64,000 nucleotides of DNA from Methanotrichaceae archaeon (GTDB lineage: Archaea; Halobacteriota; Methanosarcinia; Methanotrichales; Methanotrichaceae): NCBI GenBank assembly GCA_013178225.1, contig JABLXE010000015.1:1-64000 (forward strand), in the 5' to 3' direction. Both the position numbers and the translations under genes were made by a program. The stretch's first letter is position 1. Every line of letters starts with the position of its first letter. Positions 3,618-46,469 of this stretch are shown piece by piece. Under the pieces are notes generated by a model. The model worked only from the letters and a program-made list of their open reading frames with translations. It was not told the origin of the DNA and did not search any database.

Positions 3618-4280
3618 ATGAACCCGCTTCAGAGGATCAGCCGGCTGGAGCTGACCGATCTGCTGCTGTCCTTGATCGCTCTTACCATCGGTTTTGCCAT
3701 AATCGGAGAAAGCGGCATTCCCGGCTGGGAGGTGTTCCTCATATCGGCCTTCGGCGTGGGCACCGGCTTTCTGCTGCACGAGATGGCGCACAAGTTTGTA
3801 GCCCAGGAATACGGCTACTGGGCAGAGTACCGGGCTAACCGGCTGGGCTTGATAGTAATCATCGTCATGGCCCAGCTGGGCTTCATCCTGGCGGCTCCGG
3901 GAGCGGTCATGATCAGAAAAGATTCTCCGGAATTTGCGCAGGATAATTGGTCCGGCTACGATGAGAGCGGTGAATATATGGAGAAGAAGGCTTCTTCGGA
4001 GATGCTGAGGATCTCCATTGCCGGTCCCATGACCAACATAGTGCTGATGTGCGCGTTCTTCGTGCTGCTGTCAAGCGGCCTTTTGACCAGTTATCTGTCC
4101 ATTGCAGCGGTTCGATATGCGTTCTTCATCAATCTGATTTTAGCCGGGTTCAACCTGATTCCGTTCGGCCCTCTGGACGGGGCCAAGGTGTACCAGGCCA
4201 ACCGTTTGGTATGGGCGGTTGTGGCAGTGCCGACGTTGCTGCTGGCTCTGCCGGTGTTCTTCGGGATCAGCTTAATCTGA
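3618..4280 (+). CDS. M50 / site-2-protease-like membrane zinc metalloprotease
   Basis: An HEMAH (HExxH) zinc motif lies within a transmembrane helix, and a later NLIPFGPLDG (LDG) motif is typical of the S2P family. The protein is multi-pass hydrophobic. Confidence 0.7.
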   Translation: MNPLQRISRLELTDLLLSLIALTIGFAIIGESGIPGWEVFLISAFGVGTGFLLHEMAHKFVAQEYGYWAEYRANRLGLIVIIVMAQLGFILAAPGAVMIRKDSPEFAQDNWSGYDESGEYMEKKASSEMLRISIAGPMTNIVLMCAFFVLLSSGLLTSYLSIAAVRYAFFINLILAGFNLIPFGPLDGAKVYQANRLVWAVVAVPTLLLALPVFFGISLI

Positions 4281-4862
4281 GAGAATTGGGGCATAGCAGC
4301 CAGAGAACCCACATTTCGCATGTTAACTTCTTAAATCAAGTATTTTTCCTGTTATCGATTTATTAAGCTTAATTATAAATTAACTATTAAATTTCATTGA
4401 TATTAAGCTGATGGGCCAGATAGCTCTCATCACGACAAATTTTTATCTCCTTACACTGTATCATAAAATCAACTTAATGCCAAAAAAAGCAATTAGAAAA
4501 TTTTATTTAATTAAATTATTTGTATCCTATGTTACGAAATCGATAGCTGAAAAAATACTAAATCCTCCGGCGCAAAGTGCGAAATGTGGGAGAGAATATA
4601 TGTTCCGTCGGATATTATAATTGTGCCGCGTTTGACCAGCTAAAGTCGGTTGAAGTAAATATTTCCAATAAAAAATAATTTATAATATCTTCCTCGAAGG
4701 AGCTAAATTTAATTTTTTGATTTTTGCTCACTTTGATTCAGATGCTATACAGAGATGCCACCGCCACATTTCCGGCCGCACATGCGCTTTTTCTGACACG
4801 AATCGTCCTGCTCCACGCACCATTGTTCTGAAACTTTCTGCCCGGCACAACCCTTTGTGATA

Positions 4863-6224
4863 TTATTCGTCACATTCTGCGCTTTTTTTACGACGTCTGC
4901 CTTCATCCGAGATCACCTCTTCGAAAAATCCATACTTCATCTTCAAGCTCAGCATTTCCGGAAGCATATACCTAATTTGCTGGCATGTTTCCTGAGAATT
5001 ATCATACAATACGCTATACGGGCAACCTCCCATGCAAATAGGCATAAACTTGCAGCCCTTGCATTTCTCTCTTTCAAATGGATCATAAGAAAGCCACCTG
5101 ATATACGTGTCATTCTTTTCCTTCTGGAGGACGGATCCTATTCTCTCCTGTCTCCGACCCACGCTATTCCAGCATTTTGATATATCTCCATTGGCGTCTA
5201 TGACGAAGCTGTCCATGCAATCCGCTGTGCAGTAATTCCCGTAGAGCTTGGGATTTATAGTAATGTCGAATCCTTTCTCTGCTGCTGATTTTGATAGTTT
5301 CAAAAAAATTCCTGCAAAATCCTCTTTTCGCAGACAAAACTTCTCTATTTCATGGCATATTTCCGTAAAAGGTTCAACCTTCGTAACTGATACAGATATC
5401 TTATCCGTCAACCCTTTCTCGTCCAATACATCAAGAAAATCAGGAACCTTTTCCCAGTTTCGGCTATCGATATTCACGCGAAGAAATACACGCTGGAAAA
5501 GATCTACATTTTCTAAAATATTTTTCAAAATCCTATCGAAGGTGCCTTTTCCATTTCTCAATGTGCGCCTTGCATCATGAATTTCCCTGATGCCGTCTAT
5601 CGTGACCTGCCAATTATCGACAGCAAGCTGCTCTGTAAGGATCTTGGCGTTTCGCCTGCTCATCAAATAGCCATTAGATATGATATCTGCAGAGTACTTG
5701 ATGCCCATCGTCTCGCAGATTCTGATGAATTTGGTTGAAAGATAACTGATCTTGTTCATCGCAAGAAGCGGCTCTCCACCATACCAGGTAATCCCAAGAG
5801 AATTCTTATCTTTCAGGTGAACTAATGTGAAATCATAAACCGCATCCATGATCCGCTGTGTCATAGATGTCTTTGCCGATCCCTCAAAGCAATAATCGCA
5901 ATTGAAATTGCACATCAAGGTCGGAGTTATTGTTAGGGAGAGGCTATTCACGTAAAAACGCCCAAGGCGGTTACGCACCTTCAGTTCAGCTAATTCATCT
6001 TTTGATTCATCGACTATGATTCCATTTTGAAATAGCACATCAATAACCGCCTCTGAACATTCGGAATTCCGGCACCAATCCTTGCTGCAATCGTAAACAA
6101 AAGCGATCGTCTCCTGATCAACTTCTAAAAGCGAATCACGAAATGTGTTATAAATGTAATGTCGATTTTCATTTTCAAAAATTATATTATATTTAGAGGC
6201 TTTAAACGAGCCCGATTGCATCAT
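4863..6224 (-). CDS. Radical SAM / SPASM-domain enzyme with an ~100-aa N-terminal extension; candidate peptide (RiPP) maturase, alternatively an anaerobic sulfatase-maturase-like enzyme
   Basis: CNFNCDYC (CxxxCxxC) sits near residue 105, followed by a WYGGEPLL glycine-rich motif. The C-terminus has a Cys-rich SPASM-like segment (CKGCKFMPICMGGCPYS). A GGTGA ribosome-binding site lies just before the ATG. The gene is AT-rich compared with its flanks. Confidence 0.8.
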   Translation of the reverse strand: MMQSGSFKASKYNIIFENENRHYIYNTFRDSLLEVDQETIAFVYDCSKDWCRNSECSEAVIDVLFQNGIIVDESKDELAELKVRNRLGRFYVNSLSLTITPTLMCNFNCDYCFEGSAKTSMTQRIMDAVYDFTLVHLKDKNSLGITWYGGEPLLAMNKISYLSTKFIRICETMGIKYSADIISNGYLMSRRNAKILTEQLAVDNWQVTIDGIREIHDARRTLRNGKGTFDRILKNILENVDLFQRVFLRVNIDSRNWEKVPDFLDVLDEKGLTDKISVSVTKVEPFTEICHEIEKFCLRKEDFAGIFLKLSKSAAEKGFDITINPKLYGNYCTADCMDSFVIDANGDISKCWNSVGRRQERIGSVLQKEKNDTYIRWLSYDPFEREKCKGCKFMPICMGGCPYSVLYDNSQETCQQIRYMLPEMLSLKMKYGFFEEVISDEGRRRKKSAECDE

Positions 6225-6554
6225 GATTCACCTGCTATCGTAATCCTAATTTAATATCTTATTGACTCTATATTGCACATTAGTTTTTTAATTTATCTTC
6301 TTATTAAGTTTATCGGTAGCAAAATGATAACATATAAACAAATTAAAATATGACAGTCCCTTCTTTTAATAATTTTGTTTGCAACTAAAAGAATAGTAAT
6401 ATTTTGTATGTAATTATCCAAATATCTCTTGGTAACATCCAAGGAAAAGCCTGATGGCATTAATATGTAAGCGGTCGAGCGGTAATGAAAGCATTAGTCC
6501 GAGACAAAATACCATGGGATGCTATGGAATTCTTGCAAAATAAATTAGACGACC

Positions 6555-6962
6555 TTACTTCGTCCATACGTCCATGGTCATGTCGTGATAAAGCTCGATC
6601 CTCTGCGGCAGGAATTTCAGGACCACGTAGTCGGGGTTTTCCGGCTTCTGGAAATACTGCTCCAGCTCAGGATGCCAGTACTTCTTCTTTGTCTCCAGAT
6701 CCTCATGCACCTCTGCCTGAGCCTCGATTACCACATAGGGATCGTTGAACTCCCTGCCGGACCAGATTGATATCGCAGCCGCAGGGTTCTTCTTGAGCTG
6801 GGAGACCTTGCGGAAGCTCTTCATGGTAGCTCCGATAAGAGTCAGGTCGTCCATCCCGGCCAGCAGCATAAACCTCACCGCCGGCCTCCCATCCCCAATG
6901 GTGGCCACCGCTGCCACGTGTTCTCCGCCCATTACCTTGAGTATGTCGTCTTTAAGAGCCAT
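6555..6962 (-). CDS. Pyridoxamine 5'-phosphate oxidase-like FMN-binding protein
   Basis: The translation (135 aa; VAAVATIGDGRPAVRFM...YVVIEAQAEV) resembles the PNPOx split-barrel family. Confidence 0.55.
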   Translation of the reverse strand: MALKDDILKVMGGEHVAAVATIGDGRPAVRFMLLAGMDDLTLIGATMKSFRKVSQLKKNPAAAISIWSGREFNDPYVVIEAQAEVHEDLETKKKYWHPELEQYFQKPENPDYVVLKFLPQRIELYHDMTMDVWTK

Positions 6963-8674: not shown

Positions 8675-11092
8675 TCACTTCGCTGCGGAAATCTCTTTCT
8701 CCTTCTCCAGCACCTTCAGGGTGATCTTCATCACCGTGTCCGGATTGACCGATATGGAGTCGATCCCCTCCTGGACCAGGAACTCGGCGAAGTCGGGATA
8801 ATCGCTCGGTGCCTGGCCGCAAAGCCCGCTGTGTCTTCTGTTCCTGCGGGTCCCCTGGATGGACAGAGACACCATCTTCTTCACCGCCGGGTCCCGCTCA
8901 TCGAACTCCTGAGCCAGGAGTTCCGAATCCCGGTCAATTCCCAGGGTGAGCTGGGTCAGGTCGTTGGAGCCGATGGACATTCCGTCCACCAGCTGGCAGA
9001 ATTCGTCCACCAGAATCACGTTGCTCGGAATCTCGCACATGATGTAGATCCGAAGGCCGTCCTGGCCGCGCTTGAGGCCGTTTTTCTCCATCTCCTTCAG
9101 GACCTTTGAGGCCTCGTCCACCCTCCGGCAGAAGGGGATCATGACGATTACGTTGTCCAGGCCCATCAGCTCCCGGACGCGTTTTAAGGCTGCACACTCC
9201 AGGGCGAAGGCCTCCCGGTAGCGTTCATGATAGTATCGAGAGGCTCCTCTGAATCCCAGCATGGGATTGTTCTCGTCCAGCTCGAAGAACCTGCCGCCTA
9301 TGAGGTTGGCATACTCGTTGGACTTGAAGTCGCTTAACCGCACCACCACCGGCCGGGGGTAAAAGGCCGCGGCTATGGTCCCGATTCCCTGGGAGAGCTT
9401 CTCCACGAAGTATTCCTTGCGGTCTTCATAGCCGAAGGTCAGCTCGTCAATGGCCCGTCGGGCCTCCTCGTCCTTCACCTGATCGGGGTGAATCAGGGCC
9501 ATGGGATGAACTTTTATGTAGCTGCTGATGATGAACTCCAGACGGGCCAGTCCCACTCCGTCGTTGGGTATCATGGAAGTGGCGAAGGCCACCTCGGGGT
9601 TGCCCAGGTTGATCATGACCGCCGTCTTGGGCCGCACCAGGCCCAACAGATCGATCCTCTCCACCTTGAAGGGCAGGATTCCCTCATAGACATGGCCCAC
9701 GTCTCCCTCAGCACAGCTAACCGTCACCTCCCGGCCGGTCTGAATCTTGTCCATGGCCCCATCTGCTCCCACCACTGCCGGAATTCCGAACTCCCGGCTG
9801 ACGATGGCCGCATGGCTGGTGCGGCCTCCCTGGGAGGTCACCACTGCTGCTGCTTTCTTCATAACCGGCTCCCAGTCGGGAGTCGTGGTCGTCGAGACCA
9901 GGACCTCTCCTGCCTGAAACGCCGCGAGATGAGAGACATCCGGGATTATTCTCGCCTTTCCGCTGCCGATCTTTTCTCCAACGCTCCGGCCGGTGACGAT
10001 GATCTTTCCCTTCTCCTGCAGGTGATAGCTCTCTAAAAAGTCCATGCTCCTCTGGGACTGAACCGTCTCCGGACGGGCCTGGACTATGAACAGCTCTCCG
10101 CTTTTCCCGTCCTTTGCCCACTCCACGTCCATGGGCCGGTAGGCTCCCGCCTTTTTGGAGTAATGGTCCTCAATCTTGATGGCATAGTCAGCCAGTTTCA
10201 GCACATCGTCGTCGTTGATGCAAAACCGCCTCCTTTCATCGTCCGGCACCTCGATATTCCTGGTCAGGGCTTTCTCCGTTCCCTGACCGTAAATCAGCCT
10301 CATCTGCTTGGCACCCAGGCTCTTCTTGATGATAGGCCGAAATCCCTTCCTGAAGGTGGTCTTGAAGACGTAGAACTCGTCGGGATTGACCGCTCCCTGG
10401 ACGATGTTTTCTCCCAGACCGTAGGAGGCGGTGATGAACACGGCATTCCTAAAGCCGGTCTCGGTGTCGATGGTGAAGATGACCCCGCTGGTGGCCAGGT
10501 CGGAACGGACCATCTTCATGATGCCTATGGACAGTGCCACCTTGAAGTGATCGAAGCCCTGGTCTATCCTGTAGGATATGGCCCGGTCGGTGAAGAGCGA
10601 TGCGTAGCACTTGATGCAGGCCTCCTTCAGCTCATCGTAGCCCCGAACGTTGAGATAGGTTTCCTGCTGGCCGGCGAAGGATGCTGTGGGAAGATCCTCG
10701 GCACTGGCCGAGCTTCTGACCGCTACGTCCGGGTTGGGGCCGTACTGCTCTCCCAGGCGGTCGTAAGCCTCTTTGATCCCGGACCAGACCTCATCAGGGA
10801 TGCTGGCGCCCAGGATCAGGTCGCGAACCTTTCGTCCTCGCTCTGCCAGATCACGGACGTTTTCCTTGTCCAGGCCTGACAGTATCCGTTTCATCTCCGG
10901 CAGTACTCCTGCCACCTCCAGAACCCGCCAGTAGGCATGCGAGGTGGTGGCAAAGCCGTTTGGAATCTTCACCCCTTCTGAAGACAGTTCCCGGTACATC
11001 TCGCCTAAAGAGGCGTTCTTTCCGCCCACCACCGGAACGTCGTTAATGCCGATCTGGTTAAACCACAAAACGAATTTGTCATTTTTATCCAT
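8675..11092 (-). CDS. ppsA: Phosphoenolpyruvate synthase (pyruvate, water dikinase)
   Basis: The 805-aa protein has a PEP-utilising mobile domain with TSHAAIVSREFGIPAVVG (phospho-His), an N-terminal ATP-grasp-like region and a C-terminal TIM-barrel PEP/pyruvate domain. Confidence 0.9.
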   Translation of the reverse strand: MDKNDKFVLWFNQIGINDVPVVGGKNASLGEMYRELSSEGVKIPNGFATTSHAYWRVLEVAGVLPEMKRILSGLDKENVRDLAERGRKVRDLILGASIPDEVWSGIKEAYDRLGEQYGPNPDVAVRSSASAEDLPTASFAGQQETYLNVRGYDELKEACIKCYASLFTDRAISYRIDQGFDHFKVALSIGIMKMVRSDLATSGVIFTIDTETGFRNAVFITASYGLGENIVQGAVNPDEFYVFKTTFRKGFRPIIKKSLGAKQMRLIYGQGTEKALTRNIEVPDDERRRFCINDDDVLKLADYAIKIEDHYSKKAGAYRPMDVEWAKDGKSGELFIVQARPETVQSQRSMDFLESYHLQEKGKIIVTGRSVGEKIGSGKARIIPDVSHLAAFQAGEVLVSTTTTPDWEPVMKKAAAVVTSQGGRTSHAAIVSREFGIPAVVGADGAMDKIQTGREVTVSCAEGDVGHVYEGILPFKVERIDLLGLVRPKTAVMINLGNPEVAFATSMIPNDGVGLARLEFIISSYIKVHPMALIHPDQVKDEEARRAIDELTFGYEDRKEYFVEKLSQGIGTIAAAFYPRPVVVRLSDFKSNEYANLIGGRFFELDENNPMLGFRGASRYYHERYREAFALECAALKRVRELMGLDNVIVMIPFCRRVDEASKVLKEMEKNGLKRGQDGLRIYIMCEIPSNVILVDEFCQLVDGMSIGSNDLTQLTLGIDRDSELLAQEFDERDPAVKKMVSLSIQGTRRNRRHSGLCGQAPSDYPDFAEFLVQEGIDSISVNPDTVMKITLKVLEKEKEISAAK

Positions 11093-11399
11093 CTAATTCC
11101 ACTCCAGGGCTTAATTCACATTCTATAAATCGAAGTTCTCTGCTCAACGGTCTCGGTTCAAAATATTTACTAATATCATTATTCCCACCTCAGGTATAAG
11201 AAATTTTTTTGAAGCTTCAAACCCAAAATGAATTTCAGAGATGGCATCAGCAGTCATCACCGCCAAAAGATCTAATAATATTAGGGCGTTTATTCTGAGA
11301 ATTCCTATAAACCCACCCGTGACCTTGTTATGAAAAATTATATATACTAACAATACTATTCTATACTATGGATTCTTTTACTACCTGGATGTTGAGGGG

Positions 11400-12330
11400 G
11401 CTTAATGCGAAGCAAGGTAAGTCCGGTTGTCGCAGATATCCGATTTGATCGATTGGGTGCCAATTAGATATATACTTGACGAAATGTATAATAATAAGAG
11501 TGAAAAGGGTGGACGGCCCAACTGCGACGTTATTCTGATGTTCAAGATTCTAATTCTTCAACAATGGTACGGCTTGAGCGATTTAGAAGTTGAAAGGCAA
11601 ATGGCTGACCGAATTTCGTTCATGGCGTTTCTTGGTTTTCCGGACCCGTTCCCCGATTCGAGGACCATATGGCTATTCAGAGAACGCATGGCGAAGAGCG
11701 GAAAAGATGAAATCGTCTGGGCAGAGCTTCAAAGACAGCTGGACGCCATGGGGCTAAAAGTTAAGCGTGGAACGATTCAGGACGCCACATTCATTGAAGC
11801 AGATCCTGGTTCATCAAAGAAGCTTCGCGGCGACAATGCCAAGACTCGTCGCAGCCGAGATGGTACTTGGGCCAAGAAAGGAAATGAAACTCATTTCGGC
11901 TATAAGTTTCACGAAAAAAACGATATCGATTACTGTCTAATACGAGAAATTGAAACCACTACGGCATCGCTGCACGATAGTCAGGTTGATCTATCTACGG
12001 AAGGCGAAATTGTGCTCAGAGACAGAGGCTATTTCGGTGTGAAGGCGAAGGGTAATGATTTTACCATGAAGCGCAGAACTTCAGAACGGCCTCTTGATAA
12101 ACTCGATAAAGAACGCAATCGGTTGATTAGCAGTATAAGATCACCAGGCGAAAGACCTCATGCTGTGATAAAGAGAGTTTTTGGGGCAGGAAGAGTATTG
12201 GTTACTACAGTCAAGAGAGTTAGTGTTAAGATGATGGTTGCAGCATTTGCTTTTAACCTTTATCAACTCTGCACTCTGAAAAATGCCAGAATCATTTAAC
12301 TTAGCGGAAGCTATCGATGAATGATGTGGA
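11400..12330 (+). mobile_element. IS5-family insertion sequence (ends not resolved)
   Basis: The transposase gene sits alone between ppsA and unrelated genes. I could not identify terminal inverted repeats by eye, so the bounds are approximate. Confidence 0.4.
11427..12299 (+). CDS. IS5-family DDE transposase
   Basis: The N-terminal block (GGRPNCDVILMFKILILQQWYGLSDLEVE...SFMAFLGF) is IS5/IS4-type. DDE-region motifs DATFIEAD and DRGY are present. Confidence 0.8.
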   Translation: MSQISDLIDWVPIRYILDEMYNNKSEKGGRPNCDVILMFKILILQQWYGLSDLEVERQMADRISFMAFLGFPDPFPDSRTIWLFRERMAKSGKDEIVWAELQRQLDAMGLKVKRGTIQDATFIEADPGSSKKLRGDNAKTRRSRDGTWAKKGNETHFGYKFHEKNDIDYCLIREIETTTASLHDSQVDLSTEGEIVLRDRGYFGVKAKGNDFTMKRRTSERPLDKLDKERNRLISSIRSPGERPHAVIKRVFGAGRVLVTTVKRVSVKMMVAAFAFNLYQLCTLKNARII

Positions 12331-12677
12331 AAAAGGGTTATTCAAGGAAGTTGAGCGCGTTTAGAACGGAATTGGTGCCAACCTCTGAGATTAACTCCCA
12401 AACGCTTGGTAAATAGGAATCCTCTTCTGTCTTAGATCATGATCCTTCGCCCCATATTCCAAAGGCCGCTTCCCGAAGGCCTCAAGGAATTGCACGACCT
12501 GGCTCTGGACTATATGAGTTTATACCGCGCTCAGGTTCCTGCAGACCGCCCGGCAGGGGATTTCACCCCCAGGACCATCCCTCATCGTCCCGAGGTCAGC
12601 GTGCCCGGAGAGGCCGTTTGCATCCTGTGGTATAAATAGCATTATCGTGAACTTCTGTTCTATTCCGGGCATCAGAG

Positions 12678-13221: not shown

Positions 13222-15194
<1,973 letters not shown>

Positions 15195-17558: not shown

Positions 17559-18068
17559 TCATGGGTGCCCAATCGGGCATGAGAGTTTAGCTTGAAGTGA
17601 GTAGCCGCTTTCTTTCAGCAGCCGTCTCATCATATCATGACTTACTTTATGACCTTTTGATCGCAGTTCCTCAGCGATGGCATAGGTTGATTTGTATGCC
17701 CATCTGAGGAGACTCATAGGGTCGTCTGATGCGCTCTCGTCCATTATGGCTTTGAGGTCGATCGCTAGGTTTGGATCTCTATCCGCAGCTCGTCTTCGAC
17801 CACCACCTGGCTTACGAAACCTTTCAGGGAGTTTTAATTCCTCGTTGCTCTCAAGCTCTTGAATGCCCTTGTTGATAGTATTTCGTGAAAATCCGGTTAT
17901 AGCAGAGACTTTTGACACACCGCCCCATCCAATTTCAAGAGCTTTCACAGCAGCAAAACGCCTTGCCTAAATTGATTTTGCGTCAAAGACTAACGGCTTG
18001 CCAGACTCAAGCTCGGCTATTACTGATATCTTGAACTCTCGGTCGTAGCGTCGCCTCGTCTTCTTCAT
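17559..18068 (-). pseudogene. Composite transposase remnant: IS3-OrfA-like HTH (33 aa, ends in a stop) fused to an ISAzo13-family N-terminal region (129 aa, no DDE domain)
   Basis: MKKTRRRYDREFKISVIAELESGKPL is IS3 OrfA-like. The blocks RKPGGGRRRAADRDPNL...MDESASDDPMSLLRWAYKSTYAIAEEL...GYSLQA are ISAzo13-family N-terminal blocks. No downstream catalytic domain is present. Confidence 0.5.
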
Positions 18069-18296
18069 GCACTTCCCTCCAAGTTGACGTTGCTTAACTC
18101 ATTATCTACTCGGAGGGGTGCGCTCCAATCTGCGCTTCAGATCCTAGGAGTTACTGCGGTGATGAGATTCCACACCTTAGTCCTTCATTTGCTTATGTTC
18201 CTCCAATTAGTGGCAAGCGGTTATACATACACGGCCAAAGGTTTTTGTAAATATAGGATAATGATGCAGGATAGCTAAGCAGGAGGTGTATTTATC

Positions 18297-19781
18297 ATGA
18301 AAAGATATATAATATTAGCAGTCTTGCTCATAATGTTAATAGGAACCGGCTTTGCAGAGAATGTGGACATAGGTAATGTGAATGCCTTTAAACAAGCATT
18401 AGAAAAGGATGGGTTTACTGTACAACAAGGTGAGCTGGGTTTTTTTGATCTAATTAAACTCTATAATGCGGGATTGATACCATCATCATACGGAAACAAT
18501 CCTACCACAAAATATCTGGTATATTTCGTGCCGCCAGCACCAGGTTATAAAGTAAACGATAGATCGTCTAAAATAGCTAAAATGCTTGGCAAAAGCGGCA
18601 ACGCGACTGCCTACTGGAATCTTCGTCCAGATGAAGCCGTAATTTTCGTAGGAAGAACGCCCCCAGAATGTCGATTCTTCAATTTTGATGCTGATTTAAT
18701 ATTCAGGACGTATGGAAATGAGACTCGATGGATATGGGCCAATGTAGGCGATCCACTGAATCAGGATGTAATCAAGACAGCAGGAACGCTAAATGGATCA
18801 TCAGGGAATCCATTCAATCAAACTACAATGATAGTCGCTGCGGCCGATAAAGGCATAGATCAAAGGATACGCATCGCTGCAGAGTCCGCAGGATATTCAA
18901 ATGGCATCATCAATACCATGGTGCTTCCCTCACCCATGCTGAATATGGGAGTGGAGAATAATTCTGACACGTTTGGCATATACATCCGTCCAGCTCTATT
19001 TAAAAATAAGCAAGCTGGCAGCGATTATATCAATAATACGCCTGCGATTATTCTCCGAGTTACTCCAAATGAAACAGCACAGCTAGATCCATATAGCGTG
19101 CCGGAGCAGAGAGTCCGTGGAACTGGAAAAACAGAATTTAACTTAACGACCGATCTTGCTGAATTAAGGGATGCAATTCTCAATGAATACAGCGACTTGG
19201 AAGCCGCTGAACTTCCAACGAGTATGTGGATCCCAGATGGTAATGATGGTATCCAGAGAGGAATCAACATCTATGGACCTAACAACGATGCATGCTATCT
19301 ATGGACGGCAAATCAAACTGTCTCTTCACCGACACCACCTTTCAATAACATCTCGCTGTACTATGGGTTCTCGCGAAATCCACCAGTAACTTTGGGCAAC
19401 GATACTAATGACTTCATTATTGTGTATGGGGTTAACCATGTGGCCACAGGAAAGGCAACATACTCGAATTTCGCTATCTTTGGAGCCGATGTTTGGAATG
19501 GCGTTGGGGCAGTCACAGATCAAGACTTCAACGGAACCGCTGAGGCTTATCTACCCAACAACCCTGATGCAAAGTATCTTTATGTCTATAAGATAGCCAG
19601 GCACTCTAATGGCGATCCACATTGCTTTGAACTTCCTTACGGCCCAGATGGCTACGGCATAGGTCCAAACCAGCCGCTTTTCATTGCATTCAGGATTTAT
19701 CATGAAGAGGCTACGAAGACTGGGCCGTCCTATTCAGAGATCATGTACGATCGGGCCATAAAATTTAGCCCAAAGAAATAG
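18297..19781 (+). CDS. Secreted hypothetical protein (494 aa) rich in N-glycosylation sequons
   Basis: A signal peptide is present and there are many N-x-S/T sequons. GC content is lower than in the core genes. Confidence 0.5.
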   Translation: MKRYIILAVLLIMLIGTGFAENVDIGNVNAFKQALEKDGFTVQQGELGFFDLIKLYNAGLIPSSYGNNPTTKYLVYFVPPAPGYKVNDRSSKIAKMLGKSGNATAYWNLRPDEAVIFVGRTPPECRFFNFDADLIFRTYGNETRWIWANVGDPLNQDVIKTAGTLNGSSGNPFNQTTMIVAAADKGIDQRIRIAAESAGYSNGIINTMVLPSPMLNMGVENNSDTFGIYIRPALFKNKQAGSDYINNTPAIILRVTPNETAQLDPYSVPEQRVRGTGKTEFNLTTDLAELRDAILNEYSDLEAAELPTSMWIPDGNDGIQRGINIYGPNNDACYLWTANQTVSSPTPPFNNISLYYGFSRNPPVTLGNDTNDFIIVYGVNHVATGKATYSNFAIFGADVWNGVGAVTDQDFNGTAEAYLPNNPDAKYLYVYKIARHSNGDPHCFELPYGPDGYGIGPNQPLFIAFRIYHEEATKTGPSYSEIMYDRAIKFSPKK

Positions 19782-19875
19782 GTAAAAGGAGGGATATACA
19801 GGTTGGTCCGTATCCATGTATAACCTGTAAATCCATCCCTTCGTTTTTGGTTATCTTCAAAGCACGGGCACGAGG

Positions 19876-20514
19876 CTAAAAATTTCTTTGTAGTGCCTCG
19901 GCTGAGATATTTGGGAGCATTATTAAGGGAGAATCCTCGTATGCCTCTCTCGAAGCGAACTTCCAGCCGTTCTGTGTCTTTAGGAACTTATCCTGGTAAT
20001 ATCCTGTAAGTATCACGTTTATGCCTAATTCCATGGCTTTTAAAGGGCCAAGAGAAGCTGCAATGGTTTTGTTAGGGAAGGATCGCACTACACAGAGGTA
20101 CATCGTCGTTCCCTCTGCACCTGCTACATCAGTCTGGTTAAGGATGGTATTTGTCATGAAATGCCTGGTTTGATTGCCTTCAAAACTCGGCCCTAACAGC
20201 TGACGGCGCTCCTCGTTAGAGCTAGTCACAAGATTTGGAGTAGATGAGTCGCCATTGTAGACCGACCAAATTGCGTCATCGGTAAACAAATCGAGCCAGC
20301 TATCTAAATCCTTTGAGTCATAGGTATAACTGTAGCTGTAAATGAGATCCATGATCTCTTGGCGGTCAGCCGAGCTTAGAGTTGTATTAGAAGCTTCAGG
20401 GGATACGTTTTGCGCCACTACCATGAAGGATAGGATTCCAATTAATACCAACCAAGTTGATGGACTTGTTTCATTAAATTCCCTCCCTATTTTTGGTTTT
20501 AGGATTTTGCTCAA
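19876..20514 (-). CDS. Membrane-anchored or secreted SnoaL/NTF2-like fold protein
   Basis: An N-terminal hydrophobic helix is followed by DLIYSYSYTYDSKDLDSWLDLFTDDAIW (SnoaL-like). Confidence 0.4.
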   Translation of the reverse strand: MSKILKPKIGREFNETSPSTWLVLIGILSFMVVAQNVSPEASNTTLSSADRQEIMDLIYSYSYTYDSKDLDSWLDLFTDDAIWSVYNGDSSTPNLVTSSNEERRQLLGPSFEGNQTRHFMTNTILNQTDVAGAEGTTMYLCVVRSFPNKTIAASLGPLKAMELGINVILTGYYQDKFLKTQNGWKFASREAYEDSPLIMLPNISAEALQRNF

Positions 20515-20692: not shown

Positions 20693-23194
20693 ATGGTCTT
20701 GGATATATTGGAGGGATCCCCGATCGCTATCACTTATAGGACTATAGAGGTTGCCATGATGCTTTCTGCAATAATACTAGTGGCGACCTTTTTCAGCCCT
20801 GCCTTCTCTCAGGAGGCCGGTGGAACAGATAGCAACCAGTTGAACCAAAATTCTGATGAACCTAATCTGGCAAACGATGCCAATGACCTCCTCACAAACA
20901 GGAGGAAGCCCTTGACATCAGACTCTGGCCTGGACGATATAACAACAGAGGACGTAATCAACCCTGAGAAGCCAGAAAATGTTGTGGTGGTTACGGCCAA
21001 GTCGGAAAAGGAGTGTGAACCCGATGTAGGATTATCCTATAAGGATTCGAAGCCCTGCTGGCCTGAGGGAGTTCAGCCTCCAAAGGGCGCTCCTAACGTG
21101 GTGTTCATCGTGCTTGACGACGTTGGTTTTGGTCAGATAGGATGTTTTGGAGGGCCGATTGAGACCCCTAACATCGATCGTCTGGCGGCAGGTGGCCTGC
21201 GCTATAACAACTTCCATACATCTGCAATGTGCTCACCCACGAGGGCATGTCTCCTGACCGGCAGGAACCACCATTCTGTGGGGATTGGAACAGTTACAGA
21301 CATCCCCACGGGCTATCCTGGATATACCATGGACCTGTCCAAGAACGCAGCAACTATTGCAGAGATGATGAATGCAAATGGCTTCAATACTTTTGCTGTT
21401 GGCAAATGGCATTTAGCGCCCCCAGAAGCCTCAACTGCAGCAGGGCCTTTCGATAACTGGCCCACAGGAAGGGGATTTGACAAGTATTATGGGGTTCTCG
21501 GAGCCGAGACAAACCAATGGTATCCTGATCTCGTCAGCGGAACCACGAGGGTTGATCCGCCAGCAACGCCCGAAGAGGGATACCATCTATCCGAGGACCT
21601 AGTGGATCAAGCGATAGGATTTATAAAAGACGAACAGGCCGCAGAGCCCGGTAAACCCTACTTCCTCTACCTGGCATTCACGGCGGCTCATTCTCCTCAT
21701 CTGGTACCCCAGGAATACATAGATATGTACAAGGGCAAGTTCGATAAGGGCTGGGATACAGTCCGGAATGAGACCCTAGCAAGGCAAAAGCAAATGGGCA
21801 TAGTTCCTGAAAATACAGAGCTTCCACCCAGGAATCCCGACGTATCAGCCTGGGACGGCCTGAGCGCCGATCAGAAGGAGATCTATGCAAGGGAGCAAGA
21901 AGTGTTTGCAGGATTCCTGACCCACACTGACGCCCAGATCGGCAGGTTCTTGGACTATCTTGAGGGAACTGGGCAGCTCAACAACACCATGATAATCCTT
22001 ATTTCCGATAACGGTGCAAGCATGGAAGGCGGGGTGAATGGAACCTTAAACAATTATCACTTCTTTAACTACTTACCAGAGAGTTTTGCCTCACTACTCG
22101 ATAACATAGACGAGTTCGGAGGAACAAAGGCGTACAACCACTACGCTACCGGTTGGGCCATGGCAGGAAATACTCCCTTCAAAAGGTACAAGCAGAACAC
22201 CCATGAGGGAGGGATTCACGAGCCAATGATCATCCACTACCCCTCGGTAATTGAGGATGAAGGAAGGATAAGAAATCAGTACACACACGCAATTGACGTC
22301 GTACCAACAGTCCTGGACGTCCTGGGCCTTCAGGCGCCAAAGGATTACAACGGCTATGTCCAGAAGCCAATTGAAGGTGTGAGCTTTGCTAATACCCTCA
22401 CGGACCCAGATGCCGAGACCGGGAAACACGTACAATATTATGAGATGATGGGCAGCAGGGCCATCTGGTCTAATGGCTGGAAGGCTACGACATACCATCC
22501 GCCGGAATCCGGAGGGGACTTCATCAACGACACCTGGGAGCTTTACAACACTACTGCAGACTTTTCAGAAGTTCATGATCTCGCCACCGATTATCCCCTG
22601 AAGCTCAAGGAGATGAGATTCCTATGGTTCGTCCAGGCCGAGAGGTACAATGTGCTCCCATTGGACGATCGCTTGTTAACTAGGCATGCGCCTGGTCAAG
22701 TAACTGGAATTTTCACCTACTATCCAGGCACTGAAAAGATCCTAGGGCCGATGACACCAGACACATTGAACCACTCCTACAACATCACGGCTTACGTGGA
22801 TATACCTGAATCCGGCGCTGAGGGGGTTATTTTCTCCATAGGCGGGCGGTTTGGAGGTCTATCTTTCTTCGTCAAGGATAGGCATCTCGTCTACGATTAC
22901 AACTTCGTAGGCGATAGGCATTACAATGTCACATCGGCGTTCGAGGTCCCTGGCGGTCGATCCGTTCTGACGATGGCCTTTAATTTGAAGGGCCGTCATA
23001 CAGGCATTTCAACGCTGTATATCGACGGACAGGAGGTTGGTAGCACCGAAGTAGTGACCGTGCCAAAACAATACTCTATGGAGGAGGGACTTGAGATAGG
23101 ACGCGACCCCCAGACACCTGTAACTGAGATCTACGAGAGTCCGTTTAAGTTTAATGGGACTATAGAGAAAGTCGTACTGGAGGTGAAGGAATAA
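20693..23194 (+). CDS. Cys-type arylsulfatase-family enzyme, secreted, with a long C-terminal extension
   Basis: The sulfatase signature CSPTRACLLTGR (C-x-P-x-R, formylglycine site) is present, and there are N-terminal hydrophobic segments. The true start is probably the internal Met of MMLSAIILVATFF. Confidence 0.85.
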   Translation: MVLDILEGSPIAITYRTIEVAMMLSAIILVATFFSPAFSQEAGGTDSNQLNQNSDEPNLANDANDLLTNRRKPLTSDSGLDDITTEDVINPEKPENVVVVTAKSEKECEPDVGLSYKDSKPCWPEGVQPPKGAPNVVFIVLDDVGFGQIGCFGGPIETPNIDRLAAGGLRYNNFHTSAMCSPTRACLLTGRNHHSVGIGTVTDIPTGYPGYTMDLSKNAATIAEMMNANGFNTFAVGKWHLAPPEASTAAGPFDNWPTGRGFDKYYGVLGAETNQWYPDLVSGTTRVDPPATPEEGYHLSEDLVDQAIGFIKDEQAAEPGKPYFLYLAFTAAHSPHLVPQEYIDMYKGKFDKGWDTVRNETLARQKQMGIVPENTELPPRNPDVSAWDGLSADQKEIYAREQEVFAGFLTHTDAQIGRFLDYLEGTGQLNNTMIILISDNGASMEGGVNGTLNNYHFFNYLPESFASLLDNIDEFGGTKAYNHYATGWAMAGNTPFKRYKQNTHEGGIHEPMIIHYPSVIEDEGRIRNQYTHAIDVVPTVLDVLGLQAPKDYNGYVQKPIEGVSFANTLTDPDAETGKHVQYYEMMGSRAIWSNGWKATTYHPPESGGDFINDTWELYNTTADFSEVHDLATDYPLKLKEMRFLWFVQAERYNVLPLDDRLLTRHAPGQVTGIFTYYPGTEKILGPMTPDTLNHSYNITAYVDIPESGAEGVIFSIGGRFGGLSFFVKDRHLVYDYNFVGDRHYNVTSAFEVPGGRSVLTMAFNLKGRHTGISTLYIDGQEVGSTEVVTVPKQYSMEEGLEIGRDPQTPVTEIYESPFKFNGTIEKVVLEVKE

Positions 23195-23891: not shown

Positions 23892-25646
23892 GTGGTTATG
23901 GACTTGAGTCCCAGAGTAACGTCCGCTTCATTAATCGATCCTGAGAAGGCAAGACCACTCAGGTGCTTTGCAATTTTATTGATGGTCTTTCCCCTCTTAT
24001 GTTCAGCTTCAGTATTGCTGGCAGAGGGACGCTTTGAGGACGGCAGTTCCGCATTGAGAGAAGAACAGGTCGCACAGAAGTTCGAGGTCTTAAGGCAGAA
24101 CCCTGTGGAACTCAGAGCCTTCTTTCTGGGCATGCCCAAGGGAGGAGATATCCATAACCATTTGACGGGAGCTGTCTATGCCGAGTACCTCATAGATCAG
24201 GCAAGTGATGAGGATCTTTGCATCAATCTTGACAACTACACCGTCTCTGCCAATTACTGCGGGGCGGAGAACTCCGAGCCGGTAAAAGACGCCTACTCAA
24301 GCTCGAAGCTGTACGGCCAAATAGTCGATGCCTGGTCGATGAGGGACTCCGAATTGCTCGACGAGAGCAGTCATGACCATTTCTTCGACACCTTCGGAGT
24401 CTTCGGTGGAGCGACCAGCAATACCAGCGCTTTGCTGGCATATATCCGTTCCAGCGCCTATCTGGAGAACATTTCATATCTCGAGGTCATGACCGGCGCG
24501 GGTTCGGCGGCTGCTAACCTGGGAGGCAATGTGGGATGGGACGACAACCTGTCCCGACTCTATGACAAACTCGTCGACAATGGCCTTGATTCCGTATCCC
24601 AGAGCCTGTGCGATTACATAAACGGCACAGAAAGTGGTTCATTGAGTATTCTTGAGAACGAGGGTGACCCCGGCCGCAATGTGACCGTCCGCTACATTTT
24701 GGCCGCAACTAGGAGCCTACCCTGCGAGAAGGTCTTCGGCCAGCTGGCTGCGGCATTCGATGCCGCTAATCGATCGAACCTGGCGGTAGGTGTGAACCTG
24801 CTGAGCGCCGAAGATAACTGGAATGCGAGAGAGAATTACTCCCTGCAGATGGAGATGGTCGGGTTCCTCCACAGCATCTATCCTAACGTCAATATAGCTC
24901 TTCATGCCGGGGAGCTGAATCTGGGCCTTGTTCCTCCCGATGATCTGAGGTTCCACATTAAAGAAGCAGTTGGAGTAGCAAGAGCCTCCAGGATCGGCCA
25001 CGGAGTGGATATCATGTGGGAGCTTCACTCTGACCAGACCCTGGAAGAAATGGCTGAAGACCAGATAGCCATTGAGATCATGCCGGTCAGCAATCAGCTA
25101 ATCCTGGGGGTGGGCGGAAAGGATCATCCCTTCCCGGTATATTTCGACCGCGGAGTGCCGATAGTCCTGGCTTCAGACGATCCTGGCGTGTTGCGTACGG
25201 ATTTGAGTGAGCAGTTCGTGGTGATCGCTGAAGATTATCCGCAGGTCAAATACCAGGATTTCAAGAAATTTGTGAGGAACAGCATCGAATATAGCTTCTT
25301 GTCTGGCAACAGCATATGGGCCTCTAAAGGCGACTACACGAAGCTGGCCGATGAATGTTCGTGCTGCCAGCCGGGCTCGGAGGAGACCGATTCAAGGTGC
25401 AGCAAATTCCTCTATAGCAGCGAAAAAGCCAGAGCAGAGTGGAAACTGGAGGCATATCTGGCGGCCTTTGAAGAACGATATTCCGGGGGAGAGGCCGGAG
25501 CACAGCTTCAGAGATCAGATGCCGCACCTCTATATGAGCCCAATTTGCCACAGCCGCGCCAGAGGTCCTCTTGCTTGGATCCCTGCCGGGACAGGGCACA
25601 GGATTACTCTGCCATCGAAAGATGTCGCACTGGGTGTTGCGCATAA
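23892..25646 (+). CDS. Secreted adenosine/AMP-deaminase-family (ADGF-like) protein with a Cys-rich C-terminal tail
   Basis: The family motifs DIHNHLTGAV (HxHLxG), ALHAGE and ASDDPGV are all present, preceded by a signal peptide. The last ~90 aa contain about 12 Cys. Confidence 0.7.
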   Translation: MVMDLSPRVTSASLIDPEKARPLRCFAILLMVFPLLCSASVLLAEGRFEDGSSALREEQVAQKFEVLRQNPVELRAFFLGMPKGGDIHNHLTGAVYAEYLIDQASDEDLCINLDNYTVSANYCGAENSEPVKDAYSSSKLYGQIVDAWSMRDSELLDESSHDHFFDTFGVFGGATSNTSALLAYIRSSAYLENISYLEVMTGAGSAAANLGGNVGWDDNLSRLYDKLVDNGLDSVSQSLCDYINGTESGSLSILENEGDPGRNVTVRYILAATRSLPCEKVFGQLAAAFDAANRSNLAVGVNLLSAEDNWNARENYSLQMEMVGFLHSIYPNVNIALHAGELNLGLVPPDDLRFHIKEAVGVARASRIGHGVDIMWELHSDQTLEEMAEDQIAIEIMPVSNQLILGVGGKDHPFPVYFDRGVPIVLASDDPGVLRTDLSEQFVVIAEDYPQVKYQDFKKFVRNSIEYSFLSGNSIWASKGDYTKLADECSCCQPGSEETDSRCSKFLYSSEKARAEWKLEAYLAAFEERYSGGEAGAQLQRSDAAPLYEPNLPQPRQRSSCLDPCRDRAQDYSAIERCRTGCCA

Positions 25647-45503: not shown

Positions 45504-46469
45504 ATGGGAGGAGATATGAGATATATATTGGCGACCATGGCTATGCTGGTTGTCCTTTTCTCAGCAGGCGCAGCTGCCGATGAAAAGATTGTAATCCCCA
45601 GCATACCCAGCGTAGCTGCCACAACCAGCACGTATGTTATGCCCGATGTGCCAATGCCAAGCATAACCAGTTGCGAGAACCCGACCAGCTCTAGCTGCCC
45701 GACTACTTGCGGTTGTATTACCAGCCTTGGATGTCCGAGCGGATCCACCTGTCCAACCGGGTCTGGATGCCCCACCGGTTCGTACTGCATTTCAGGTCCC
45801 GGTTGTGCTTCAGGTCCTGGCTGCAGCACCAACTCCTACTGTCCAACTACTTGCGGCTGTGCGACAGGGGCCCTCTGTCCGACAGGATGCGATTGTGCAA
45901 CCCAATCAAGCTGCCCTACAGGCCCAGGATGCACAACCAACGCCAACTGCCAGACATGCTCTGACTGTCCAACCGGCTCGTCCTGCCCGACCGGGGGAGA
46001 ATGCACAACCAGTTGCCACTGCCAGACATGCTCTGACTGTCCAACCGGCTCGTCCTGCCCGACTGGAGGAGAATGCACAACCAGTTGCCACTGCCAGACA
46101 TGCTCTGACTGTCCAACCGGCTCGTCCTGCCCGACTGGAGGAGAATGCACAACCAGTTCCTACTGCCAGACATGCTCTGACTGTCCAACCGGCTCATCCT
46201 GCCCGACCGGGGGAGAATGCACAACCAGTAGCCACTGCTCAACGTGCTCCGAATGTCCAACTGGAACCAAATGTCCAACTGACTCCGGCTGTCCCAGTGG
46301 TGTAAGGTGTCCGAGCACCAGCAGGTATCCAACAGCTGGGGAGTGTCCCACAGGTTCGAACTGTCCCAGCGGCGGCAGATGTCCCACAGGGACGGGTTGC
46401 TGTGTTTGCGGCCTGTGTCCTACCGGGAGCGGATGCTCGACATCGTGCAGTGATTATCGGTCCGGCTAA
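45504..46469 (+). CDS. Secreted, extremely Cys-rich CPTGS-heptad repeat protein (about 20% Cys)
   Basis: A signal peptide is followed by about 250 aa made of C-P-[TS]-G-[SG]-x-C style heptads, including four near-identical 24-aa units (CQTCSDCPTGSSCPTGGECTTS[CS][HY]). A purine-rich ribosome-binding site (GGGAGGAG) precedes the ATG. Confidence 0.7.
   Translation: MGGDMRYILATMAMLVVLFSAGAAADEKIVIPSIPSVAATTSTYVMPDVPMPSITSCENPTSSSCPTTCGCITSLGCPSGSTCPTGSGCPTGSYCISGPGCASGPGCSTNSYCPTTCGCATGALCPTGCDCATQSSCPTGPGCTTNANCQTCSDCPTGSSCPTGGECTTSCHCQTCSDCPTGSSCPTGGECTTSCHCQTCSDCPTGSSCPTGGECTTSSYCQTCSDCPTGSSCPTGGECTTSSHCSTCSECPTGTKCPTDSGCPSGVRCPSTSRYPTAGECPTGSNCPSGGRCPTGTGCCVCGLCPTGSGCSTSCSDYRSG
45951..46238 (+). 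repeat. Four tandem copies of a 72-bp unit inside the Cys-rich protein gene
   Basis: Units start at 45951, 46023, 46095 and 46167 (CAGACATGCTCTGACTGTCCAACCGGCTCGTCCTGCCCGAC...). There are no more than 3 substitutions per unit. The unit is in-frame (24 codons). Confidence 0.9.

Follow-up and report, generated by a model that had tools for sequence, protein, structure and literature searches.

The stretch of DNA analysed here, referred to as the window, comprises 64,000 nucleotides (nt) of contig JABLXE010000015.1 (positions 1 to 64,000 of the forward strand; assembly GCA_013178225.1), the source contig being labelled 'Methanotrichaceae archaeon' by NCBI. Close to its low-coordinate end, two overlapping genes on the minus strand lie in an AT-rich island: the larger encodes a radical S-adenosylmethionine (SAM)/SPASM peptide maturase of 453 amino acids (aa; 4863..6224), and the smaller a Cys-rich precursor peptide of 53 aa (4745..4906). 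The pair is bordered by two spacers, of which the downstream one runs from the precursor stop codon to the convergent S2P gene of the host (4281..4744, GC content 0.31), while the upstream one is devoid of conserved open reading frames (ORFs) and presumably contains the promoter region (6225..6554, minus strand, GC 0.30). The reading favoured here, to which a probability of roughly 0.8 is assigned, is that the two genes constitute a minimal cassette for a ribosomally synthesised and post-translationally modified peptide (RiPP) in a Methanotrichaceae archaeon, with a product that is probably cross-linked by thioethers.

The maturase (NCBI record NPV63449.1, where it is named merely 'SPASM domain-containing protein') is an ORF with both NCBIfam and Pfam matches. 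It contains a single CxxxCxxC motif, CNFNCDYC at residues 105-112 (5889..5912, minus strand), detected with a regular expression and present in 54 of 54 homologs; C105, C109 and C112 are the predicted ligands of the radical SAM [4Fe-4S] cluster, and the score of 41.5 bits with PF04055 (radical SAM; gathering score 29.5) places the protein in the superfamily. The C-terminal part qualifies as a SPASM domain (TIGR04085, 54.5 bits, cutoff 27), and its seven-cysteine signature, expected to hold two auxiliary Fe-S clusters, is complete (4983..5231, minus strand): C332-x13-G346-x4-C351, C388-x2-C391-x5-C397-x3-C401 and C414 are each found in 54/54 homologs, C290 is likewise invariant, and C297 is kept in 50 of the 54. 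A sequence-only reading of the same DNA, made by a model without database searches, had described a cluster motif about 100 residues into the protein followed by a Cys-rich SPASM tail, and the invariance of both elements bears this layout out.

The best NCBIfam matches extend over the full length of the maturase, from residues 8-12 onwards and, for the two leading ones, to about 412-428, and all of them are peptide-maturase families. The highest score is obtained with TIGR04463 ('rSAM_vs_C_rich'; 325.1 bits, curated cutoff 525), followed by Clo7bot TIGR04334 (314 bits, cutoff 600), CefB NF038107 (233.5, cutoff 600), FlmE/OhkG NF052473 (181.7, cutoff 500), the geopeptide maturase TIGR04280 (172.2, cutoff 400) and the PapB-family model NF047865 (123.8, cutoff 340). 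The SCIFF maturase TIGR03974 scores 76.9 (cutoff 425); DynA, DarE/DarW and cyclophane-forming maturases are matched weakly as well. The model for the anaerobic sulfatase-maturating enzyme (anSME), TIGR03942, reaches 74.3 bits against a cutoff of 349 and covers residues 103-413 only. Since the window maturase reaches no equivalog cutoff, and relatives at 41-64% identity likewise stay below theirs (292-326 bits with TIGR04463, 332-337 bits with TIGR04334), these enzymes belong to a separate sub-clade for which no curated model exists.

Structural comparisons point in the same direction. By sequence, CteB is closer than any other solved structure (E 1.4e-12). CteB also gives the best structural match to an AlphaFold model based on 54 homologs (pLDDT 90.8), the alignment taking in the N-terminal domain and some 450 columns in all, with TM scores of 0.66-0.72. 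Structures of anSME are significant matches too; they have no N-terminal domain, and the alignment with them spans some 384 columns. Overall, the assignment of the enzyme as a RiPP peptide maturase rather than an anSME, which had been proposed from the sequence, is supported.

The N-terminal domain (residues about 7-89; 5958..6206, minus strand) resembles the RiPP recognition element (RRE), a PqqD-type winged helix that recognises leader peptides. Both for the full-length protein and for residues 1-95 modelled on their own (pLDDT 87.6), DSSP assigns the topology b-b-b-a-a-(b)-a, with strands E13-18, E21-26 and E31-35 and helices H37-45/47, H58-66 and H77-89 (pLDDT 87-96), so that the three-stranded sheet followed by three helices that defines the RRE fold is present in two independent models. 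A Foldseek search of the isolated domain against the PDB returned a top list made up almost entirely of RREs at TM scores of about 0.5-0.6, among them those of ThcOx and TbiB1, the lasso-peptide B1 protein, the PbtF RRE, the MccB clamp, the N-termini of SuiB and CteB, and PqqD. The domain is conserved across the 54 homologs, and we accept it as 'RRE-like' at the level of the predicted fold, a description that the sequence-only reading had anticipated; by analogy, it would bind the leader of the precursor.

The same reading had conceded that its maturase call would fall if anSME emerged as the full-length top match, or if the first 100 residues stemmed from a mispredicted start. The former is at odds with the partial anSME coverage given above. 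As to the latter, homologs start within about eight residues of the window protein and are conserved from 'SKYNIIF' onwards, and a Shine-Dalgarno (SD)-like AGGTGA (6228..6233, minus strand) precedes the ATG by 3 nt, which together indicate that the start is correctly placed. The loop that connects RRE helices one and two, a region of lower model confidence, carries three cysteines in the window protein, C46, C51 and C56 (residues 46-56, DCSKDWCRNSEC; 6057-6089, minus strand), which are nearly private to it, occurring in 3/54, 1/54 and 1/54 homologs, respectively.

The precursor gene, which encodes MKADVVKKAQNVTNNITKGCAGQKVSEQWCVEQDDSCQKKRMCGRKCGGGISV, was recognised as an ORF with homologous counterparts beside the relatives of the maturase. 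It starts inside the maturase gene, with whose final 44 nt it coincides in a different frame, and an SD-like GAGGTGA lies 6 nt upstream of its ATG, within the maturase coding sequence (4913..4919, minus strand). The core, delimited by family alignments (4766..4849, minus strand), contains five cysteines in the pattern C20-x9-W29-C30-x2-Q33-x3-C37-x5-C43-x2-K46-C47, in which C20, K24, W29, C30, Q33, C37, C43 and K46 are invariant columns of the family. This core motif occurs only once in a six-frame translation of the window. A comparison with a 98% identical strain shows four substitutions in the ORF, three of which leave the encoded peptide unchanged. The NCBI accessions of the flanking genes are consecutive, from which it follows that the precursor is unannotated in the NCBI record. 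A Cys-rich precursor beside an RRE-bearing radical SAM/SPASM enzyme is the arrangement by which ranthipeptide and sactipeptide genes are recognised, and to judge by the genes and their conservation the 53-aa peptide is very probably the substrate of the maturase.

This finding overturns one part of the sequence-only reading, which had seen no convincing Cys-rich precursor and had left the enzyme without a partner. The small ORFs that it listed as candidates do not hold up either, none of them being conserved between strains. The 69-aa ORF at 4411-4620 (plus strand) has no family match, and in the 98% identical contig L016 a stop codon and two indels that shift the frame break it up. The small ORFs upstream of the maturase (6225-6560) differ in frame, with 73 aa in contig L006 and 55 + 33 aa here, and an indel is present at 6449.

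The precursor family is very rare in protein databases, as far as sequence searches can tell. Comparisons of nine members with Pfam and NCBIfam (E <= 10 or 0.001) yielded noise only, a word-indexed profile search of 5.8 billion proteins recovered eight clusters, all unnamed, and HMMER, run exhaustively over 1.84 billion representatives, gave six matches at E <= 0.001, among them a repeat protein of 1768 aa that probably has no relation to the family. It is important to bear in mind that small overlapping ORFs often go uncalled, and the family is therefore probably under-counted.

An inspection of the DNA around maturase relatives shows that the pairing recurs over a wide range of divergence. 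In the 98% strains the same 53-aa ORF is called, with one change in the leader (N14D), and a relative at 64% identity has an overlapping ORF of 54 aa, which is available as a gene call only, its sequence not being readable. At 50% identity (locus L015), a 56-aa ORF downstream of the maturase is accompanied by a second ORF of 134 aa. Relatives at 44% (L009 and L012) have overlapping precursor ORFs of 102 and 106 aa, the one in L012 having been missed by gene callers, and a Desulfuromonadales relative at 41% (L027) has an overlapping ORF of 101 aa. At 48% (L008), a 96-aa precursor ORF has been moved 1.8 kb away by a transposase fragment. All readable relatives (50/48/44/41%) share the core C-x(8-9)-W-C-x2-Q-x3-C-x5-C-x2-K-C, once or twice per precursor, and in all of them except L008 the precursor overlaps the maturase gene or lies immediately downstream of it. 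The sequence AAGGAGA precedes the precursor starts in L008, L009, L012 and the first L015 ORF. The cassettes of the relatives have a GC content of 0.37-0.41 and sit in unrelated neighbourhoods.

Two of these loci display variation of their own. In L015 (1362-2093), the 56-aa precursor has one core unit and the 134-aa precursor two, which shows that the number of units can vary within a single locus. In L008 (1209-5109), which is bacterial, a Cys-rich, zinc-ribbon-like tail brings the maturase ORF (P0004) to 589 aa, and a fragment of a DDE transposase lies between the maturase and the 96-aa precursor; a separate 178-aa protein, P0262, consists of a precursor leader fused to a zinc-ribbon-like tail of the L008 type. 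L008 and P0262 look like rearranged or decaying cassettes.

The composition of the window cassette sets it apart from the surrounding DNA. The maturase gene has the lowest GC content (0.411) among the 52 long ORFs of the window (mean 0.524, standard deviation 0.047), its GC at third codon positions (GC3) is 0.453 as opposed to 0.736 and 0.741 in the two flanking genes, and the cassette as a whole has a GC content of 0.38 compared with about 0.55 in the flanking genes. The island had been noticed from the sequence alone as an AT-rich gene with some 600 bp of AT-rich DNA on either side; the gene and its spacers are indeed AT-rich, but the flank with the lower coordinates is about 580 bp long and contains a real gene, that of the precursor, and the opposite one spans only 330 bp. 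Searches of both spacers for remnants of other cassette genes (tblastn, blastn) gave nothing significant, a search for att-like sites or repeats bordering the island turned up short repeats at chance level only, and no Rfam family or tRNA was found in the window. A sigma-70 promoter scan performed no better than chance, as expected when a bacterial consensus is applied to an archaeon. Between the 98% strains the downstream spacer (4281-4744) differs by 0.65% and the upstream spacer by 4.55%, and the downstream spacer contains a perfect 13-nt inverted repeat (4308-4320 / 4578-4590).

The evolutionary affinities of the cassette differ from those of its neighbours. The adjacent S2P gene, which encodes an M50 protease, has Methanothrix/Methanotrichaceae homologs. 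Among the best 120 maturase matches, all named homologs are bacterial, apart from the query's own cluster; they belong to Desulfuromonadales, WOR-3, Acidobacteriota and several Clostridia. A cassette-free contig of Methanotrichaceae type, L023, has an S2P gene 77% identical to that of the window and syntenic upstream genes, and blastn similarity between the two stops at window position 4267, which is the S2P stop codon; S2P is followed in L023 by TldD, LonB and CDC48 in place of the cassette. Seven strain-level contigs from different samples carry S2P, and the three that reach far enough all have the cassette at the same site. The foreign composition, the break in synteny and the bacterial relatives together make horizontal acquisition, which had already been suspected from the base composition, well supported by sequence comparison, with bacteria as the likely source.

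Several other parts of the window deviate from the host pattern. A second AT-rich patch (11000-12400) contains an IS5-family transposase gene (11427-12299, GC 0.44; 197 bits, cutoff 140), which, together with the cassette, means that mobile DNA has entered the region more than once. A block of low-GC genes at 17559-20514 (GC 0.43-0.47, GC3 0.40-0.46), which includes a 494-aa ORF without an NCBIfam match, may be another foreign segment. The island is thus not unique in the window. The gene at 13234-14451 (plus strand) encodes a tRNA-guanosine(34) transglycosylase of bacterial type (TIGR00430, 473 bits, cutoff 307) that scores 112 bits with the archaeal TgtA model (cutoff 350), which is unexpected in a contig that bears the label Methanotrichaceae.

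How the cassette might work can be outlined on the basis of better-known enzymes. In the established scheme for radical SAM/SPASM maturases, the RRE binds the leader, a radical abstracts a hydrogen atom, and a Cys sulfur joins the resulting carbon radical (PMC10114670); the domain set and the invariant clusters of the window maturase fit this scheme. The 53-aa peptide would be translated from a start inside the 3' end of the maturase gene, a position that makes translational coupling of the two genes probable. The RRE domain of the maturase would bind the short N-terminal leader of the precursor, and the radical SAM cluster would cleave SAM to generate a 5'-deoxyadenosyl radical that abstracts a hydrogen atom from a core residue. 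The two SPASM auxiliary clusters may then help to join core cysteines to side-chain or backbone carbons. The product would most probably be thioether-cross-linked and ranthipeptide- or sactipeptide-like, with up to five links, a chemistry suggested by the Cys-rich core, the nearest enzyme families and the nearest structure. The two classes differ in the acceptor atom, the Cys sulfur being bonded to a non-alpha carbon in ranthipeptides and to the alpha carbon in sactipeptides. Candidate acceptors, or else candidate targets of a different chemistry, are the invariant Gln, Lys and Trp residues. We infer that the cassette is expressed in the archaeal host and that its product has a biological role.

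A number of observations weigh against the interpretation as a functional, horizontally acquired thioether cassette in an archaeon. The curated maturase cutoffs are all missed, so no characterised enzyme vouches for the chemistry. At the N-terminus, the Foldseek search with the isolated domain gave no significant single match (best E = 0.03), and a Pfam scan at E <= 0.1 detected no PqqD/RRE sequence match of the PF05402 type. The leader of the window precursor, with about 19 residues, is the shortest of the family and has no FIDEP-type motif of the kind seen in the two-unit bacterial precursors; its recognition could consequently be impaired or work differently. The island holds two genes only, and no leader peptidase or exporter is encoded there. 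The neighbouring M50 protease is encoded by a syntenic host gene, which is also found where there is no cassette. A possible link between it and a membrane protein with a HExxH motif, encoded next to the Desulfuromonadales cassette, was dropped, as BLASTP showed no homology beyond that motif. The right flank of the island also differs in L023, so that the comparison yields no clean insertion junction. Finally, the host label is the classification of a metagenome-assembled genome.

The alternative that survives best, although we consider it doubtful, is that the cassette exists as described but that its chemistry does not involve thioethers: the maturase would form C-C or C-O links, or introduce some other modification, on Trp, Lys or Gln, with streptide, darobactin/dynobactin and cyclophane systems as models and with the cysteines serving as disulfide or metal ligands. 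It draws strength from the invariance of W29, K24, K46 and Q33, which equals that of the cysteines, from the weaker matches to DynA, DarE/DarW and cyclophane maturases, and from the failure to reach the cutoff of any thioether family. Set against this, the most strongly matched families (TIGR04463, Clo7bot, CefB and PapB) target Cys-rich peptides or ranthipeptides according to NCBI, CteB is the closest structure, and five invariant cysteines per unit are the hallmark of sactipeptide and ranthipeptide cores (PMC10114670, PMC10288494).

A less probable alternative still is that the cassette was gained recently and is carried as an inert passenger, either left unexpressed by archaeal promoters or with its truncated leader unrecognised, so that no mature product is made. 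The composition of the cassette, which has not drifted towards that of the host, would agree with such a history, as would the short leader without the conserved FIDEP motif and the lack of a protease or exporter in the island; the chance-level sigma-70 scan is what an archaeon would give in any case and lends expression no positive support. Selection, however, appears to have acted on the maturase. Compared with a 98% strain, the maturase gene has 27 substitutions, 17 of them at third codon positions, and no indels, a substitution pattern that indicates purifying selection, whereas nearby non-coding ORFs gain stop codons and indels. Moreover, the catalytic cysteines and the invariant core residues are all intact, and the cassette has been retained at the same site in 3/3 strain-level contigs long enough to show it.

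It is very improbable that the enzyme is an anSME serving a sulfatase of the Cys type whose gene (20693-23194) lies 14 kb away, with the 53-aa ORF being spurious: although that protein has the canonical C-x-P-x-R motif, no other obvious anSME is encoded in the window, and anSME is itself a SPASM enzyme with a significant structural match, the low and partial anSME score, the missing N-terminal domain of anSME structures, the location of the sulfatase outside the AT-rich island and the family of Cys-rich ORFs that accompanies the maturase in relatives at 41-50% identity with unrelated neighbourhoods all speak against it. The sulfatase-like protein (plus strand) is 833 aa long, with CSPTR, a formylglycine motif of the Cys type, at residue 180, on a contig labelled as that of a methanogen. 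Equally unpromising is the proposal, made in the sequence-only reading, that the maturase acts in trans on the 45504-46469 protein or on the Cys-rich tail of the 23892-25646 protein, which are Cys-rich (55 and 15 Cys), the former having CPTG-type repeats and no family, but lack the precursor core motif, have host-like GC (0.58 and 0.53) and lie 19-40 kb away, while a cognate and co-inherited precursor is found near the maturase in every relative with readable flanking DNA, and here immediately downstream of and overlapping the maturase gene. The 45504-46469 protein (plus strand; 321 aa, 55 Cys) has a signal-peptide-like N-terminus and repeats of the CPTG(S/G)xC type; neither Pfam nor NCBIfam gave a match to it.

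Archaea of the Methanothrix type are major producers of methane from acetate and live in close association with bacteria, in consortia. To our knowledge, very few modified peptides of archaea have been characterised. The minimal RiPP cassette favoured here would offer a directly clonable two-gene target, both for a cross-linked peptide from a methanogen and for the chemistry of a maturase sub-clade that lacks curated models. It also illustrates how a substrate gene that overlaps its enzyme gene can be missed by annotation pipelines, as has happened here both at NCBI and for several metagenome contigs, and similar 'orphan' radical SAM/SPASM genes may likewise have overlooked partners. A bolder proposition, tentative and in our judgement unlikely, is that the distinct maturase sub-clade and the undescribed five-Cys precursor family represent a new RiPP subclass, with acceptors unseen in ranthipeptides (e.g. 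Cys-Gln or Cys-Lys links) and produced by Methanothrix-type archaea following capture from bacteria. If so, the product would be among the first radical SAM-modified peptides of archaea with a defined precursor, captured in anaerobic consortia.

Among known systems, the families TIGR04463 and TIGR04334 come closest, as they have the same three-part layout as the window maturase, consisting of an N-terminal recognition domain, a radical SAM barrel and a SPASM domain, and, according to their NCBIfam names, pair with Cys-rich peptides. They differ in that the window maturase scores about half their cutoffs and its precursor matches no curated model; a search of the accessible literature found no paper on the chemistry of TIGR04463 or Clo7bot, and nothing usable on CefB or FlmE/OhkG. 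The characterised ranthipeptide synthases CteB, the thioether-forming SCIFF maturase of thermocellin (PDB 5wgg, 5why), and PapB, which makes freyrasin, likewise combine a minimal maturase and Cys-rich precursor with a three-cluster architecture. CteB, however, is only about 17% identical to the window maturase, and unlike SCIFF or the CX3D repeats, the window precursor has cysteines spaced by x9, x6, x5 and x3 and is encoded downstream of the maturase gene, which it overlaps. The anSME enzymes (PDB 4k36-4k39) share the radical SAM barrel and the SPASM domain with its two auxiliary clusters; in contrast with the window maturase, they have no N-terminal recognition domain, their cluster motif falls in the first 30 or so residues rather than at residue 105 behind a folded 90-residue domain, and it is the window maturase whose gene is linked to that of a small Cys-rich peptide.

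With regard to archaea, a survey lists the radical SAM-dependent ranthipeptides and sactipeptides with the abundant classes of predicted RiPPs, mostly in Euryarchaeota; identified products are scarce, none modified by a radical SAM enzyme is described, and Methanothrix is not mentioned (PMC12144867). The window locus is, in this sense, one more archaeal radical SAM RiPP cluster of a kind already predicted by genome mining. The survey offers predictions at the level of classes, whereas at this locus the precursor family, the gene overlap and a likely bacterial origin have been worked out, and what distinguishes the cassette from known systems is a maturase sub-clade without curated models, a precursor family that is undescribed and seldom called, and the overlap between the genes of the precursor and its enzyme.

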